Assembly: GCA_944320495.1 (NCBI GenBank)
Contig: CALUHR010000002.1
Location: 1-64,000 of the forward strand
DNA length: 64,000 bases
Reading direction: 5' to 3'
Source: Candidatus Methanomethylophilaceae archaeon
GTDB lineage: Archaea; Thermoplasmatota; Thermoplasmata; Methanomassiliicoccales; Methanomethylophilaceae
Below the pieces are notes generated by a model, which was not told where the DNA came from, made no database searches, and saw nothing but the letters and a program-made list of their open reading frames with translations. Positions 11,852 to 63,449 of this stretch are shown here, in pieces. Numbering within the stretch: position 1 is the stretch's first letter; the number at the start of each line of letters is the position of its first letter. A program made the position numbers and the translations under genes.

Positions 11852-12574
11852 ATGGAAGAGGCCTATCTCGTGGCGGCCGCCGTGATCATCTCGGCGATAA
11901 TGTCGCTCGAGGCGTACAAGCTCGGTTGCCTGACTAGGGACGGCGCCGTCGCCTCGTTCCTCGTCGGCGCCTTCGTGGGCGTCTTCGCATCGATCAACGC
12001 GTTCTTCCTCCTGGCGGTCTTCACGATCGCGGGATTCTTCGCCACAATGAGGGACATCGGTCGCAAGAAGGCCGAGGGGCTGCAGGAGGGCAAATCAGGA
12101 GAACGCAACTGGAAGAATGTGGCGGGAGTCGGCATACCGCCCTGCCTGATAGTCGCCCTCGCAGCACTGGGCATCATCGACCAGACCATGTTCGCGATCA
12201 TGTTCGTATCCACCATAACCGTGGCCGGCGCAGACACCATCGCCAGCGAGATCGGTGTTCGCGACAACAGAGTGTACATGATCACCACCGGCAAGAGGGT
12301 CGAGCCGGGCGTCAACGGAGGCGTGTCGCCCCTAGGCACCGCCACGTCCACGGTGGCCTCCCTGCTCATCGCCATCCTCGGCTGGGGAGTCGTCACGGAG
12401 TCCCTCGGATGGATGCTGCTGATCCCGTTCGCGATGGGAGTCCTCGGCAACCTTCTGGACAGCGCGTTCGGGGCAGTCCTGGAAAATCCCGGATACATCT
12501 CAAAATACACCAACAACTGCTCGACAGCCCTAATCGGAGCGGTCATCGGCCTCGCCATTTACCTGATTCTGCGA
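11852..12574 (+). CDS. DUF92/TIGR00297 membrane protein (ends at CGA 12572-12574; standard-code end 12595)
   Basis: GERNWKNV, ADTIASEIG, VEPGVNGGVSPLGT, DSAFGAVLE, NNCST motifs. The residues after CGA overlap the 5S TATA box. Confidence 0.9.
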
Positions 12575-28412: not shown

Positions 28413-29095
28413 TGCAGGTTCTCGCCGTGCTCGTACTCGATCTCGTCCACGTAGCCGGCCTCCTTGAAGCCCTGGAGCCTCAGGCGGCAGGAGTCGCAGT
28501 GGCCGCAGGCCTTCTCCCCGCCGTTGTAGCATGACCATGTGAGGTGCAGCGGGGCGCCCAGCCTCTTGCCCCTGCGGACGATGTCCGCCTTGGAATCGTG
28601 CAGGATGGGCGTGACGATCCTGATGGGATTGCCCTCGACGCCCGCCTTGGTACCCACGGCGAGCATCGCCTGGAAGGCCTCGTAGAACGCGGGGGTGCAG
28701 TCTGGATATCCGGAGAAGTCGACGGAGTTCGCGCCGATGTATATCCTGTCGGCGTCCACCGACTCGCACAGCCCGGCTGCGATGCTCAGGAACACGATGT
28801 TCCTGGCGGGGACGTACGTGACCGGGATCTTGGAGCTGAGCTCCCCTTCGCGGTCCATCGGGACGTCGATGTCCTTCCTGGTGAGCGCCGAGCGGAACGA
28901 GCTCAGGTCGAGGTCGATGACCACGTGGTCCACGTCGTAGAAGTCGCACACGGCCTGCGCGGACTCCAGCTCCCTGGTGTGCCTCTGGCCGTACCTGAAG
29001 CTGATGGCGGTGACCTCGCAGCCGTCCTCCAGGGCCTGTGCCAGGCACGTCGTGGAATCCAGCCCTCCCGAGAGCAGGACGACGGCCTTCGGCAT
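28409..29095 (-). CDS. queC: 7-cyano-7-deazaguanine synthase
   Basis: LLSGGLDSTT, YGQRH, TYVPARN, SGYPDC, TWSCY..GEKACGHCDSC. Confidence 0.97.
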   Translation of the reverse strand: MPKAVVLLSGGLDSTTCLAQALEDGCEVTAISFRYGQRHTRELESAQAVCDFYDVDHVVIDLDLSSFRSALTRKDIDVPMDREGELSSKIPVTYVPARNIVFLSIAAGLCESVDADRIYIGANSVDFSGYPDCTPAFYEAFQAMLAVGTKAGVEGNPIRIVTPILHDSKADIVRRGKRLGAPLHLTWSCYNGGEKACGHCDSCRLRLQGFKEAGYVDEIEYEHGENLQ

Positions 29096-29568
29096 CGGAG
29101 CACCTCGGTGTACCAGGCGGTCTGGCCGCGCTCCTCGTCGAGTCCGACGGAGACGGTCCTCACGTTGGGCGGGAACTCCACATCGGCGACGAGCCTGAGC
29201 GTCATCATCTTGGCCATCTCCTCGGCGGTGGTGTTGGGGACGTCGAGCAGCGTGACGTCCATCCTCGGGAACACGTAGCGCTTCCCGCAGGACACGGCCT
29301 CCACGGACTCCTCGTCGTATGTCACCTTCACGTCCTGTGACGCCGTGGGGACCAGGGTCTTGTGGTCGAGCTCCTCGATCATCGCCTTCAGGGCCTTCTT
29401 CAGGACCACGAAGTCCATGATCATGCCCTCCTCTCCTATGTCCCCCTCCAGCCTGAGCCTCACGATGTACGAATGCCCGTGGAGCCTGGAGCACTTCTCA
29501 TGCCTGGGTATGAAATGGCACGCGGAGAACCTAATCCCCGAGTAGCCTCCGTCGATCTCAAGTATCAT
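29095..29568 (-). CDS. queD: 6-carboxytetrahydropterin synthase (ends at CGA 29097-29095; standard-code end 28903)
   Basis: FSACHF, CSRLHGHSY, MDFVVLK, LDHK, TTAEEMA. Confidence 0.95.
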
Positions 29569-33775: not shown

Positions 33776-34069
33776 TCGGAACTTCTTCTGGCAGAGGGAC
33801 GTCCACGTCCTCTTGTCGGTGAGGACCATCACCCCTCCGCGGATGTCTACCACGATGCATCCCGTGGCCTCCGCGATGGCCTCTGCGGCGGTCCTCACGT
33901 CGTCGTCGGAGTTCGAGAGAACCTTCGCCTTGATCAGGCGGTTCTTCTTCAGCTGCGCCGTGACCTCGTCGAAAACCCCCTGATCGAGGCCGTCCTTGCC
34001 GACCCTGACGGTCGGGCTGATATCGTTGGCGCGCCTCATCAGCTCCTTCTTGGCGTCCTTCTCGCTCAT
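33776..34069 (-). CDS. yhbY: YhbY/CRM-domain RNA-binding protein (ends at CGA 33778-33776; standard-code end 33758)
   Basis: PTVRVGKDGL...QLKKNRLIKAKVL; 97 aa to CGA. The CGA overlaps the GAGGT RBS of serS. Confidence 0.9.
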
Positions 34070-46922: not shown

Positions 46923-47780
46923 TCGTCCGGACCTGCGGACTGCCATGACCGCGATCGCCATGAACAGGGCGGTGACTGCGAGCGAGTACACCAGGGACGC
47001 GACCGCCGAGAACTCGAATCCTCCCAGCGCCAGGTCGAACCCCATGTCCGTCCTGAAGCCCTCTAGGACATCCGCGGGCGCTCCGGAGAACACGTCCCCA
47101 AGGGCCTCGGAGCACAGCGCCTCACGGAACAGCGCGGCCATCTGGCTGGCCGGGACCAGAGTCCCCACGACCTGCATCGCCTCTGGCATGGTGCCCATCG
47201 GCATGTAGATGCCAGACAGGAACCCGATCATCACGCTGACCACGGTGAAGAACCCGGAGAACGCCCCGGTGCTCCTGATGAACGACACCATCGCATACAC
47301 GATTACCGAACCGGTAAGAGCCGAAGGTACCAGGAGGACGATGCACTCCGCGACACCGGCGGCGGACAGCGGGCAGCCCACGGCGACCAAGTACGCGAGG
47401 CATATCACAAGAGCGATCAGGCTCATGACCAGGCCGGACGCGAAGGTGCTCAGCACGTGACCACCGACGACCTCCCACCTGCTCAGGGGCGTGACGGCGA
47501 TGTCCCTGTCCCTTCCGGACACACGGTCCTCGACCATGGTCTGCAGCGAACCCGCCGAGGCCGTGACGGGGACGATGCCCAGGATGCCCGCCATCACCCA
47601 TGCGTCGATGAGATGGGGCATCCCGTCCATCTCCGGGTACGAGGAGATGAGGATGTCCCTCAGGAACAGCAGGTACAGCAGCACCACGATGAGGACGGCC
47701 ATCAGCGAGAACAGGACCGACTGCCTGTCGCGAAGATAGCACAGGGTGTTCCTCTTCGCCAGTGCCAGCATCCCGCTCAT
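46923..47780 (-). CDS. ABC-2 transporter permease (ends at CGA 46925-46923)
   Basis: MLALAKRNTLCYLRDR...GFLSGIYMPMG...; 285 aa, last TM followed by RRSG and CGA. Confidence 0.9.
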
Positions 47781-48703: not shown

Positions 48704-48836
48704 TGTGGGACTCCCCCGGGTCGGAACGTGACAGACCGGCGAAACCGGAACACGGACCTCGGATATCAACCAACCGATGGAGTGCTATGGAGAACTGGCT
48801 CTTGGTATGATGAAAATTGAAGAAAAAGGAAATGAG

Positions 48837-48909
48837 TGCTCCCGACGGGATTTGAACCCGTGTCGAAGCCTCGAGAGGGCTTCATGATTGGCCGCTACAC
48901 TACAGGAGC
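48837..48909 (-). tRNA. tRNA-Glu(CUC)
   Basis: GCTCCTG acceptor, anticodon arm AAGCC-CT CTC GA-GGCTT, GGTTCAAATCC. Confidence 0.95.
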
Positions 48910-48935
48910 TTGTTAAACCTGGGAATGCTCCCATG

Positions 48936-48950
48936 TATATAATGTTTTCG
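48936..48950 (-). promoter_or_regulatory. BRE + TATA (CGAAAA-CA-TTATATA) of tRNA-Glu
   Basis: TATA 27 nt upstream of the tRNA 5' end. Confidence 0.75.
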
Positions 48951-48953
48951 GTA

Positions 48954-49736
48954 TCGGAAGTCACTCGGGCGGATCGCAGGCAGTCTCTTGTGCTCCATGG
49001 ACCTCACCTGAGCCCTGATTCTGGCGATTTCGGACAGTTCGAGACCCGTGTCTGCGGCGATCTGCGAGTCTGAACAGTCACGCTCGAGATCGAACAGGAT
49101 GCCGTCGAGATCCTCGTACCTGATGCCCATCTCCGACTCGTCAGTCTGTCCCTCCCAGAGCCCGGCGGACGGGGGCTTGGCGATTATGTCCTCCGGGACG
49201 CCGATGATCCTGGCCAGCTGCCTGACCTCGGTCTTGTAGAGGTTGGCGAGCGGAGTGACGTCGCATGCGCCGTCGCCGAACTTCGTGAAGTATCCCATCA
49301 TGATCTCGCTCTGGTTCGACGTACCGAACACCAGGTAGTCTCTCTTCTTCGCCATGTTGTACAGGACGATCATCCTGCATCTGGCGGAGATGTTTCCCCT
49401 CTCCAGAGGCGTCTCCTTCCCGGACAACAGGACCGCCGCCAGGGCGTCCACCGCGGGCTGGATGTCGACCACCTTGTACTCGGCCCCCCACATCGAGCTC
49501 AGTTCCGAGGTGACCTTGTAGTCCTCGGCGGGCGTCACACGGGAGGGCATGAAGATGTTGAGCACCCTGTCGGGACCCAGCGCGTCCGCGCACAGTTTGG
49601 TGACCGTGGCGGAGTCCAGACCTCCGCTGAGACCGACCACCGCTCCCTTGCATCCCGTGCGCTCGGCGGTGGTGCGGATGAATGAGACGAGGGCATCAGC
49701 ATCCTCTCTGGTGACCTGCGGGATCTTGGACGACAT
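48954..49736 (-). CDS. nadE: NH3-dependent NAD+ synthetase (ends at CGA 48956-48954; standard-code end TAG 48900 lies inside the tRNA)
   Basis: VGLSGGLDSA, GNISARCRM, GTSNQSE..MGYFTKFGDG, KPPSAGLWEGQTDE, MEHKR. Confidence 0.95.
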
Positions 49737-51273: not shown

Positions 51274-52276
51274 GATGAGGGTTTTCATCTGCGGATTCGG
51301 AACAGTGGGACAGGGCTTCTGTGAGGTCCTGGCCGCCCGCCGCCAGTTCCTCATAGACCGCTACGGGGAGCCAGTCACCGTCGTCGGGGCCATGGATTCC
51401 AAGACCTACGCCTACAACCCGAACGGGTTCGACCCCCTGGAGCTCGTCTCCGTCAAGCAGGGGACGGGGAGGGTCGGCACTGAGACGTACCAGGACTCCG
51501 TCGAGGTCCTCTCCGGAGCGGAGTTCGACATCCTCGTTGAGGTCAGCCCCACCGATGTGAAGACCGGCGGAGCCGGACTCAGGAACATAGAGTACGCGCT
51601 CGGCAACGGGAAGGATGTCATCACGGTCAACAAGGGCCCGCTGGCCCTGAAATTCCGCCATCTCATAGACCTGGCCGAGAGCAACGGATGCTGCCTCCGC
51701 TTCGAGGGATCCGTCGGCGGCGCCATGCCCATCATCAACCTCTGCCGCGACAACCTGGCCGGAGAGAGGATAGAATCCATACGCGGCATATTCAACGGAA
51801 CATGCAACTTCATACTCAGCAAGATGGACACCGGACAGCCGTTCGAGCAGGTCCTCAAGGAGGCCCAGCAGATGGGCTACGCCGAGACGGACCCGACAAA
51901 CGACATCGAGGGGTACGACAGCGCGTGCAAGGTCGTCATCCTCGCCAACGCCGTGTTCGGCCGCGACGTCACGTTCAACGACGTGAGGATCACCGGCATC
52001 ACATCGATCACCGAGGACGCCATCTCCCTGGCCGCCTCGCACAACATGGTCATAAGGCTCATAGGTGAGGTCTCCGAGAGCAAGCTGGAGGTGGGGCCCA
52101 GGCTCGTGCCCAGAGGACACCCCCTCGGCATCTCTGGGACACTGAACACCGCCCAGATCCTGTCCGACCTCGCCGGACCGGTAACGGTCACCGGCAGGGG
52201 TGCTGGCAGGATCGAGACCGCCTCGGCGATACTGAGCGACCTCATATCCATCATGGACGAGAGGGCGAGACGGCGA
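51266..52276 (+). CDS. hom: Homoserine dehydrogenase (CGA 52274-52276 directly before TGA 52277-52279)
   Basis: [61 protein letters not shown]. Confidence 0.96.
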
Positions 52277-55495: not shown

Positions 55496-55640
55496 CAAAC
55501 CCCTTCCATTCTTCTCTCGATTCTTGCAGAAGGACCGGGTGCTCGGACCGATGATGGAATCATTCAAAAATTAAGGGATTTAAGAAAAGTTTGCTCGGCA
55601 CCGAAGTGCCAGAGAATTAGAAGTAGTGAAGTGCACAAGG

Positions 55641-55809
55641 TGGGGGCAGAGGGATTTGAACCCTCGTCAGCGGGTTTCCTCCACCGGGGAGCGACCCCGG
55701 ATGAATCAATGAGTCATCGCTCCAGTTAGTCATCAACTGTCAGCAAACCCATTTTCAATCACTCTCAATAACTGGAGCCCACCAGTCTGCCAGGTTAGCC
55801 TATACCCCC
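55641..55809 (-). tRNA. tRNA-Trp(CCA) with 96-nt intron (55676-55771)
   Basis: Exon 1 55809-55772 ends GTGGG-CT CCA G; exon 2 55675-55641 starts A-CCCGC; canonical 37/38 intron position. Confidence 0.93.
55676..55771 (-). ncRNA. Intron-encoded box C/D guide RNA
   Basis: C-like GTGATTGA, D' CTGA, C' TTGATGA, D-like ATGA; guides ATGGGTTTG and TAACTGGAG are complementary to the pre-tRNA and place C39 and C34 at the +5 position. Confidence 0.85.
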
Positions 55810-55943: not shown

Positions 55944-55990
55944 GATCGTTCCTTCCTGAATGTTGTCCCCCGGAGGGGTTGCATCCTAGG

Positions 55991-56065
55991 CGGGCCCGCC
56001 GGGATTCGAACCCGGGGCGTCTGGCTTAGAAGGCCAGCGCTATATCCTGGCTAAGCCACAAGCCC
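55991..56065 (-). tRNA. tRNA-Arg(UCU)
   Basis: CTGGC-CT TCT AA-GCCAG anticodon arm; GGTTCGAATCC. Confidence 0.95.
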
Positions 56066-62411: not shown

Positions 62412-62997
62412 TGTCCTCCCTCCGGACGATGTCGCCGCGCGGGGTGGTCTCGCGCCAGGCCTCGCCCGTGAAGGTCTCTATCCTGGCCCCCTCGCGCCTC
62501 CATGTTCCCGGCGGGAGACCCGCCTTCATGCAGAGATGGTCGAGGTACTCCTCCTTGTCCCAGCCCTGCTCAACGGGGACCTGCGGGAGGAACAGCCCTC
62601 TGCGGCCCATGAACGATAGTATCAGCCCGTCGCGTCCGATGACGATGCTCTTCAGAATCCCCTCGGGCGTGTCCGCGCGTATCGCCTCCGGCCTGCTCAG
62701 GACGGTGACCTCGACGGTCACGCCGCCGAGCTCCCCGGGGGACAGGCGGGGGAACCTCGGATCGTTGCAGGCGGATCCGGCCGCCTCGACGATAGCCCTG
62801 CCCAGCGGCATCACGGGCATGGGGATCCCTATGCATCCGCGGAGCTCTCCGGCTGGGAACGTGTCCAGGGTGACGAACGCCCCTGCGGAGTCCGAGAAGG
62901 CGCCGATGTCGGGGATCGCCGGTGCCGGACGGCCCGAGGCCTCGGCCTCCACGGCCGATCTGGCCAGTCTAACTGCCTCCTCGCCCTGGAGCATCAT
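62401..62997 (-). CDS. AMMECR1-domain protein (ends at CGA 62403-62401; standard-code end 62335)
   Basis: GAFVTL...LRGCIG...DPRF...EVTVLS...GRDGL...GLFLPQVPVEQGW..EEYL..LC.KAGL. Confidence 0.93.
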
Positions 62998-63449
62998 CGC
63001 TCACCGACACCCTTGAAGACGCCGTCCGCGTCCCTGCGGTCGTCGGAGACGATCTCGACCCTCTTGGGGGCCTCCCTGCGGCATTCGTGGGCCCTGCAGG
63101 CGGCGTCCTTCATGGTGGCCTCGGTGCTGCGGAACCCGTCCCTGACGGGAGCCGGCATGGGAGCGCGCTCCATCAGGGCGCTCATGCCCATGAAGAACTC
63201 CAGGCCCATGTTCACGAAGTGCCTCTGCACCTCGGGGTCTGTGAATGCCGAATAGGCAGTGCGGGCGAGGTCCTCCGCCCTGGCGCGGGACTCGTCGGCG
63301 AATCCCCTGGCGTGCCCGTAGGCCTGCCTGGCCGCGTCCCTCTCGGCATCGACGAACTCCCTGGCGGCGCTCTTCTGCGTCTCGATCATCCTCTCTATGA
63401 GGTCCCTGTTGTTTGCGACGAACGCCTCGAACTCTTCATCTGTGGTCAT
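62997..63449 (-). CDS. Hypothetical helical protein downstream of ArsA-like ATPase (CGA 62999-62997 directly before TGA)
   Basis: 150 aa, A/E/R-rich; translationally coupled on both sides. Confidence 0.78.

Follow-up and report, generated by a model that had tools for sequence, protein, structure and literature searches.

The nadE gene for NAD+ synthetase lies on the minus strand of the window analysed here, a 64,000-nt stretch (positions 1 to 64,000) of contig CALUHR010000002.1 from an assembly of a Candidatus Methanomethylophilaceae archaeon (GCA_944320495.1). Read with the standard code, its open reading frame (ORF) passes two CGA codons and a promoter-like region and closes inside the gene for tRNA-Glu, which raises the question of where NadE ends and how CGA is read in this organism. 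We consider it fairly likely that CGA is a translation terminator at gene ends in this archaeon, that NadE ends at Phe260, and that the 18-codon tail which follows is an artefact of reading CGA as Arg. The evidence for this consists of comparative sequence data throughout. As a terminator, CGA probably acts in a leaky or context-dependent way and is not a clean stop.

The source genome (G000) is a 1.77 Mb assembly of 14 contigs with about 61% GC and an estimated completeness of 90.6%. Coordinates refer to the window unless a contig of G000 (C2, C8, C9 or C13) is named. For comparison, 30 related genomes were searched for nadE, and 80 public nadE loci were used. Among the genomes compared, G018 is near-identical to G000, G010 (nadE locus L336) is 83% identical, G015 is a complete genome of the same genus, G024 is a control from an outgroup family, and G070 and G033 (genus g12) belong to other genera of the family. 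Coding regions of G000 were called with a self-trained codon model, from which 1165 non-overlapping stop-to-stop ORFs were selected. The window is found in sequencing runs from chicken, bird and gut metagenomes.

The 3' end of nadE and the tRNA-Glu gene

The Pfam family NAD_synthase (PF02540) matches residues 15-252 of the gene product over profile positions 4-240 of 242 (E 1.3e-79). This full-length domain match and the orthologue-like C-terminus ...RPxxF at the CGA identify the protein as NadE. The features of the locus are as follows.

48900..49736, minus strand: nadE ORF under translation table 11, 278 aa including the standard-code tail
48957..49736, minus strand: nadE coding region if CGA is a terminator, 260 codons, ending ...AIRPSDF
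48954..48956, minus strand: first in-frame CGA, the proposed nadE terminator, aligned with TGA/TAA of same-genus orthologues
48948..48950, minus strand: second in-frame CGA, the first three bases of CGAAAA
48900..48953, minus strand: standard-code tail, proposed to be untranslated, 17 sense codons plus TAG
48900..48902, minus strand: TAG that first closes the nadE frame in the standard code, equal to tRNA-Glu positions 8-10
48945..48950, minus strand: CGAAAA, purine-rich element resembling a B recognition element (BRE), -41..-36 from the mature tRNA-Glu 5' end
48936..48942, minus strand: TTATATA, TATA-box-like element, -33..-27 from the mature tRNA-Glu 5' end
48836..48909, minus strand: tRNA-Glu(CTC), predicted by ARAGORN, Rfam RF00005 tRNA 59 bits

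The codons after ...AIRPSDF are CGA TAC CGA AAA CAT TAT ATA CAT GGG AGC ATT CCC AGG TTT AAC AAG CTC CTG TAG, and the two CGA among them are the only ones in the entire nadE ORF. The table 11 reading overruns the conserved NadE end ...RPSDF by 18 codons, past both CGA and the BRE/TATA-like promoter, and overlaps tRNA-Glu by 10 nt, since the ORF ends at 48900 and the tRNA 5' end is at 48909. A first-pass annotation of the sequence had described the standard-code tail as crossing promoter-like motifs of tRNA-Glu and ending at a TAG within the tRNA, and the ORF and ARAGORN coordinates bear this out. It had placed the TAG in the acceptor stem, which is wrong, as the triplet occupies positions just 3' of the 7-bp acceptor stem. 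Its reading of the second CGA as the start of CGAAAA holds; the role of this element as a BRE is suggested by motif likeness and by similar elements at other tRNA genes. TTATATA does stand upstream of tRNA-Glu, the distance of 27 nt given for it being that of the 3' edge of the box only.

CGAAA(A/T)-like elements are also found 5' of tRNA-Asp, tRNA-Leu(gag) and tRNA-Ser(cga), and the region upstream of tRNA-Asp (CGAAATCATTATATA) is nearly identical to that upstream of tRNA-Glu. With a crude regular expression, a TATA-like motif starting at -40..-23 was detected in 30 of the 45 tRNA genes of G000. Archaeal promoters are marked by an A/T-rich TATA box some 25-30 nt before the start and a purine-rich BRE ahead of it, and by its motifs tRNA-Glu carries a putative promoter of this type. 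In relatives whose nadE ends in TGA or TAA (L004, L005 and L012), tRNA-Glu with a BRE/TATA-like motif follows directly after the stop.

Standard stops are mostly TGA (1025 of the 1165 selected ORFs in G000, 1118 of 1239 in G015), and TAG stops are rare among the selected ORFs (55 in G000, 34 in G015). A tRNA-Pyl(CUA) gene was matched by ARAGORN in G015 and has an 87.5% identical homologue in G000 at C9:68685-68755. By this gene alone, the organism would be a pyrrolysine-decoding archaeon, in which the TAG of the nadE frame might be read through, as the first-pass annotation had proposed.

GC content at third codon positions falls from 0.85 in the nadE body to 0.53 in the tail. The tail had been put forward as independent support for CGA termination; an 18-codon open tail can well arise by chance in 62% GC DNA, so that the tail alone carries little weight, and it is the comparative data that support termination at CGA. 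An alignment of homologues, which the first-pass annotation had named as a check, places the same-genus NadE stop (TGA or TAA) exactly at the first CGA. These proteins end ...RP(S/D/N/R)(D/E)F followed by the stop codon, and G000, G018 and G010 have CGA at that codon. An EHKR motif is present in 56 of the 80 public loci, where the first terminator is TGA in 45, TAA in 7 and CGA in 4; NadE ends 13 codons after EHKR in 49 of the 56. Three of the four CGA loci (L259, L335 and L336, with identities of 99%, 74% and 83%) have the codon where the genus has its stop, 13 codons past EHKR; the fourth belongs to a distant genus and has it at a different position. CGA at the NadE stop position is found in three separate lineages, namely G000/G018, G010 and L335. 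The sequence 3' of the nadE CGA is unrelated between G000 and G010, and in the latter the frame continues for 147 codons. The gene for Pelota behaves in the same manner: relatives have TGA or TAA 2-3 codons after ...LRY, and CGA stands there in G000/G018 and, separately, in G014.

A metatranscriptome contig (run X16, depth 3.9) has G>T at 48956 of the plus strand, by which the first nadE CGA becomes AGA, and is otherwise identical to the window. This difference may be an error or a strain variant; in the strain of that contig, NadE read with CGA as a stop would gain two residues and finish at the second CGA.

CGA at aligned stops, at gene junctions and within genes

CGA takes the place of TGA both where orthologues have their stops and where stop and start codons overlap. 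In the aligned-stop test, best-hit pairs were taken whose alignment reaches the standard stop of the relative, and the codon of G000 at that position was recorded.

Whole G015 against G000, 452 pairs: TGA 272, TAA 7, TAG 3, CGA 38, other sense codons 132
G013 against G000, 201 pairs: TGA 145, TAA 2, TAG 1, CGA 18, other sense codons 35

The commonest of the other sense codons in the G015 comparison were GAG (17), TCC (8) and CAG (7), and the other one-base neighbours of TGA were scarce or missing (TGG 0, AGA 2, GGA 4, TCA 1, TTA 0, TGC 1, TGT 0). In the reverse direction, where the codon of the relative at a G000 stop was recorded, CGA was seen in 0 of 357 cases in G015 and 1 of 173 in G013. 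The next standard stop after an aligned CGA lay at a median of 19 codons, and at least 10 codons away in 22 of the 38 cases (G015), against a median of 3 after other sense codons; in the G013 and partial-G015 sets, tails of up to 425 codons followed the aligned CGA.

Stop/start overlaps were examined as XGATG junctions, for which the upstream frame had to be coding, the ATG frame had to be coding downstream, no signal was allowed across the junction and no standard stop within six codons, and XGATGA was excluded. One-base overlaps with such a frame switch numbered 45 for TGA, 25 for CGA, 0 for AGA and 3 for GGA. Within the window, CGA was recorded at the following candidate gene ends besides that of nadE.

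46923..46925, minus strand: CGA at the junction of an ABC-2 permease and a glyoxalase-like gene, codon 286 and the only CGA of a 413-codon ORF
29095..29097, minus strand: candidate CGA terminator at which the coding signal ends, with a 63-codon tail and a second CGA two codons later
12572..12574, plus strand: candidate CGA terminator with a 6-codon tail, weak because the tail is short
33776..33778, minus strand: candidate CGA terminator with a 5-codon tail, weak because the tail is short

In the permease/glyoxalase ORF, the ABC2_membrane families of Pfam end by residue 279, an ATG is found at codon 301 and the Glyoxalase family begins at 302. CGA also stands between in-frame Pfam domains of different genes elsewhere, as in NifH-like/NifD-like and Pelota/HMGL-like synthase ORFs. 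A tandem of CGA and TGA was observed at the ends of two further genes of the window (52274-52276, plus strand, and 62997-62999, minus strand).

Across the genus, CGA is kept out of coding sequence, apart from conserved exceptions in the genes for ribosomal protein L18e and archaeal release factor 1 (aRF1). This was assessed by a flank test, in which internal codons were scored for coding signal on both sides (in G000, for codons with no fewer than 40 others to either side). Coding signal on both sides was obtained in G000 for 2% of 641 CGA, 43% of CGG, 61% of CGT, 74% of AGA, 85% of CGC and 90% of AGG codons. For CGA, relatives gave 3 of 88 (G013), 0 of 89 (600 kb of G015) and 6 of 42 (G010), and the whole genome of G015 gave 6 of 241 for CGA, 163 of 363 for CGG, 1349 of 1693 for CGT and 1487 of 1904 for AGA. 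In the outgroup G024, CGA is about as rare overall (1.6 per 1000 codons) and yet sits inside genes, with 41 of 53 (77%) flanked by coding signal as are the other Arg codons of that genome; the flank method does not, therefore, simply penalise rare codons. The best-scoring coding segments of G000 (406,483 codons) held 152 CGA, 722 CGG and 501 CTA, and in alignments to G024 CGA made up 3 of 1847 Arg codons of G000 vs 52 of 1404 in G024. CGG remains Arg-like in G000. The avoidance of CGA is specific to the frame, CGA trinucleotides being common in the other frames.

Among 344 ORFs of G000 with a non-coding tail of at least 5 codons, CGA lay within 3 codons of the end of the coding signal in 71, against 5-20 for six control codons. 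A looser rule gave 152 candidate CGA terminators vs 819 standard ones in G000 (152 of 971). A roughly two-fold enrichment of back-up stops after CGA was left unused, as the candidate set holds short tails by construction.

Outside the genus, one 20-kb stretch of G070 (L367) was read with CGA as a stop, which kept its 12 tiling ORFs intact and removed overlapping shadow ORFs; CGA is frequent on antisense frames because TCG, a common codon for Ser, has it as reverse complement. G033 has one CGA at a conserved Arg of ppsA, and the ppsA genes of four other genera have none. At NadE loci outside the genus, CGA accounted for 1 of 502 Arg codons. NadE and ppsA of other genera were considered for dating the onset of CGA avoidance and set aside as having too few Arg codons. 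Elsewhere in the window, ARAGORN with introns allowed predicted an intron-containing tRNA-Trp(CCA) at 55639-55809 (minus strand), adjoining tRNA-Arg(TCT) at 55989-56065.

In-gene CGA, tRNA-Arg(UCG) and competing explanations

If CGA acts as a terminator, NadE would end at Phe260, 3 nt upstream of the BRE/TATA-like promoter of tRNA-Glu, matching the TGA or TAA of the relatives. We infer that aRF1 would terminate at CGA, which differs from UGA by one base, since the tRNA-Arg(UCG) that should read the codon is kept but appears weakened. In-gene CGA would have been purged first, after which changes from TGA to CGA would be nearly neutral, so that CGA could have built up in the G000 lineage, which is richer in GC, and reached about 8-16% of gene ends (8-9% of aligned stops). 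The tRNA-Arg(UCG) would still be required for the few conserved in-gene CGA of L18e and aRF1, which would make the codon a leaky or context-dependent stop.

Several observations weigh against termination at CGA. The genes were called with a home-made codon model instead of a validated gene finder. By codon usage, the nadE tail (score 0.098, vs 0.111 for the last 17 codons of the body) is not marked as clearly non-coding. A tRNA-Arg(UCG) gene with the Arg-like A20 and C35 and an upstream TATA-like motif is present in G000 at C13:413317-413390. Homologues were found in 11 further genomes of the genus, and in addition as a 5' half at a contig end in G006 and, by ARAGORN, in the complete G015 (c[1444186,1444260]). 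The gene is thus present in each genus genome that allowed a proper search, G005, G007 and G008 not being among them. Loss or disabling of the cognate tRNA, as would be expected of a sense-to-stop change, was not observed; the gene is kept, and only its anticodon arms are unusual. A 31:39 mismatch is found in 12 of the 12 genus copies compared, the G000/G018 copies have U32/C38 and the others C32/A38, and that of G015 has C33 instead of the near-universal U33 together with a 27:43 mismatch; the tRNA-Arg(UCG) of the outgroup G024 has the ordinary loop CUUCGAA. Loss of the gene in G015 was considered, since BLAST and pattern searches were blank, and rejected when ARAGORN found it in the whole genome. 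The same BLAST and pattern searches, which missed the G015 copy, did not find the gene in G008 and G007.

The in-gene CGA codons count in the same direction, two essential genes having one that is conserved in frame. Codon 31 of L18e (C13:191557-191913 of G000, minus strand) is CGA, in the context ATC TGG CGA GAY, in all 13 genus genomes and all 9 outgroup genomes with the motif, which is absent from 6 of the 28 loci (L169-L196). Its presence in all 22 genomes, including nine of the outgroup with ordinary rare CGA, points to a constraint at the nucleotide level; Rfam recorded no known RNA at the L18e locus. The aRF1 gene lies outside the window (C2:~85,600-87,100 of G000, minus strand; loci L063-L075). 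In each of the 11 genus genomes examined it contains one CGA in frame and no other; the codon stands at a conserved Arg (..AIDSIAA-CGA-LKTYK..), in the context NCT CGA CTN. Neighbouring synonymous sites vary, and one column of the gene is invariant for CGT, likewise a rare codon. Elsewhere in the family this Arg site is CGT, CGC, AGG or AGA in 19 of 20 genomes (13 other genera) and CGA in one g12 genome, and in three outgroup-family genomes it is AGG, AGA or CGG. The aRF1 motifs NIKS and YxCxxxF are intact, and nothing was identified in aRF1 that would account for recognition of C as the first base of the codon; relatives and the solved archaeal aRF1 (4af1) have GT(E/Q) at a site that is STE in G000/G018.

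Two further ORFs belong here. One, joining a SIS (GmhA-like) to a HAD phosphatase (GmhB-like) domain, has at the domain junction a CGA that is not followed by a start codon, in G000 (C13:193618-194718, minus strand; L339) and also in G013, and may be a read-through fusion with two products. The other has CGA inside the Flavodoxin_4 domain (C8:55277-55840 of G000, plus strand; L340), where the outgroup has Val; this flavodoxin-like gene may be a pseudogene, may have been imported recently or may contain a site of read-through. The CGA in L18e and aRF1 must be read as an amino acid. With CGA conserved inside these genes and tRNA-Arg(UCG) kept, CGA is not an unconditional stop. With this qualification, the claim of the first-pass annotation that NadE ends at CGA is supported by the orthologue stops and the genome-wide tests.

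Weighing the alternatives, CGA might be just a very rare Arg codon, in which case NadE would carry a true 18-residue extension and the other cases would be extensions or fusions arising from stop loss. The tRNA-Arg(UCG) gene, the conserved Arg of L18e and aRF1, the rarity of CGA throughout the family even where it is possibly sense (as at the non-genus NadE loci) and the codon score of the nadE tail all accord with this. Random stop loss, however, predicts TGG as often as CGA, because both are AT-to-GC transitions of TGA, and 0 vs 38 were seen. Nor would it readily explain tails of hundreds of codons that fuse enzymes as unrelated as Pelota and an HMGL-like synthase and are not conserved, the independent appearance of CGA at the same stop position in three NadE and two Pelota lineages, or an outgroup in which the equally rare CGA is normally placed inside genes; we regard this explanation as unlikely. 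Termination need not involve aRF1, and CGA could be a 'hungry', effectively unassigned codon at which ribosomes stall on a poor tRNA-Arg(UCG), the peptide being freed by rescue (Pelota/ABCE1 with peptidyl-tRNA hydrolase) or by drop-off, with NadE still ending at Phe260. The comparative evidence for CGA termination fits this equally well, as do the unchanged codon-recognition motifs of aRF1 and a tRNA that is kept but whose anticodon arm departs from the canonical form in each of the two sub-lineages compared. Set against it, the cost would be high if 8-16% of genes had to undergo stalling and rescue, the highly expressed L18e keeps its CGA, and the use of CGATG like the TGATG coupling junctions (25 vs 45) suggests orderly termination, for which reasons we think a hungry codon rather unlikely.

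Editing of C to U would turn CGA into UGA in the mRNA and present the ribosome with a normal stop. The two codons differ by just this base, and C-to-U deamination is known in archaeal tRNA. It is very improbable here, since the avoidance of CGA is specific to the frame, and the in-gene CGA of L18e and aRF1 would be edited as well. Among the contigs from RNA libraries, one covers the nadE CGA codons and none covers the permease CGA; the former has no C-to-U change, weak evidence in that such contigs may derive from DNA. An artefact of assembly, binning or sequencing might be suspected in a 14-contig assembly of incomplete estimated content, and is next to negligible, as DNA contigs from an independent run show 0 differing letters against the window and the same behaviour is seen in G018, G010, G014, L335 and the complete G015.

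Our preferred reading remains that aRF1 terminates translation at CGA, and a more elaborate form of it can be proposed tentatively. CGA might have a dual meaning throughout the genus, with aRF1 terminating by default and a deliberately weak tRNA-Arg(UCG) reading the CGA of L18e, the SIS-HAD junction and aRF1, the last of which would self-limit synthesis of the release factor; this would be the first sense-to-stop change in a cellular genome. We hold this fuller scheme to be possible and somewhat doubtful. A feedback of aRF1 on itself, akin to that of bacterial prfB, is speculation, and would count only if CGA terminates.

Significance and comparison with known systems

If CGA does terminate translation in this genus, this would be a new kind of change in the genetic code for a free-living cell. 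Standard pipelines would mis-annotate about one in ten genes, giving them C-terminal extensions that do not exist or joining them into spurious fusions (Pelota-synthase and permease-glyoxalase, for example), and protein databases would carry such errors for a whole group of animal and human gut methanogens. The genus would represent a living intermediate of codon reassignment, in which CGA has been purged and is used as a stop while the tRNA is present and a few fixed sites are read; it would bear on the debate between 'codon capture' and 'ambiguous intermediate' and make that debate testable. The decoding of TAG as pyrrolysine in the group gives its termination machinery a practical interest for genetic-code engineering.

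The literature searched contained no report of CGA as a stop in this group. To our knowledge, a sense codon has been established as a stop in organelles only and in no genome of bacteria, archaea or nuclei: AGA and AGG in vertebrate mitochondria, and codons of the UCA/UUA type in some green-algal mitochondria. As here, a sense codon of the standard code stands at gene ends in those systems and is missing from conserved sense positions. The organellar genomes, however, are tiny and have lost the cognate tRNA, whereas the present case concerns a cellular genome of 1.8 Mb in which tRNA-Arg(UCG) and a few in-gene CGA are kept.

In bacteria, release factor 2 (prfB) is autoregulated through an in-frame UGA in its own gene. 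The aRF1 gene would be comparable in being a release-factor gene with a conserved in-frame codon (in 11 of 11 genus genomes) at which its product may terminate. No frameshift site was seen in aRF1, and read-through as Arg would be needed instead.

The closest parallel among archaea comes from two hydrothermal-vent assemblies, for which, in the part of the text available, CGG is described as Trp, CGA is absent from known domains, no tRNA-Arg(UCG) was found and a CGA stop is raised as a question (bioRxiv 10.64898/2026.04.02.715157, 2026). Shared with our case is the lack of CGA in recognisable domains; unlike here, CGG is also reassigned there, and the available text gives no gene-end evidence and does not place those archaea in the Methanomassiliicoccales, while in the present genus CGG is Arg-like, the tRNA is present and stop positions supply evidence. 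Bacterial reassignments of the Arg codons CGA and CGG detected with Codetta are sense-to-sense (Trp or Gln) (PMC8629427). They agree with the present case in that the CGN codons of Arg are the most labile in prokaryotes, and differ from it in being sense-to-sense. Codetta cannot infer stops and would return a sense codon turned stop as uninferred, '?' (PMC8629427). Finally, some protists are reported to have stop codons of ambiguous meaning, which are decoded by tRNAs whose anticodon stems are 4 bp long (PMC13092985). Those systems resemble ours in that one codon has both stop and sense outcomes and is served by a tRNA with an unusual anticodon stem, here with the 31:39 mismatch; the direction is the opposite one, a stop codon having gained a sense meaning in the protists, whereas in this archaeon a sense codon has apparently become, for the most part, a stop.

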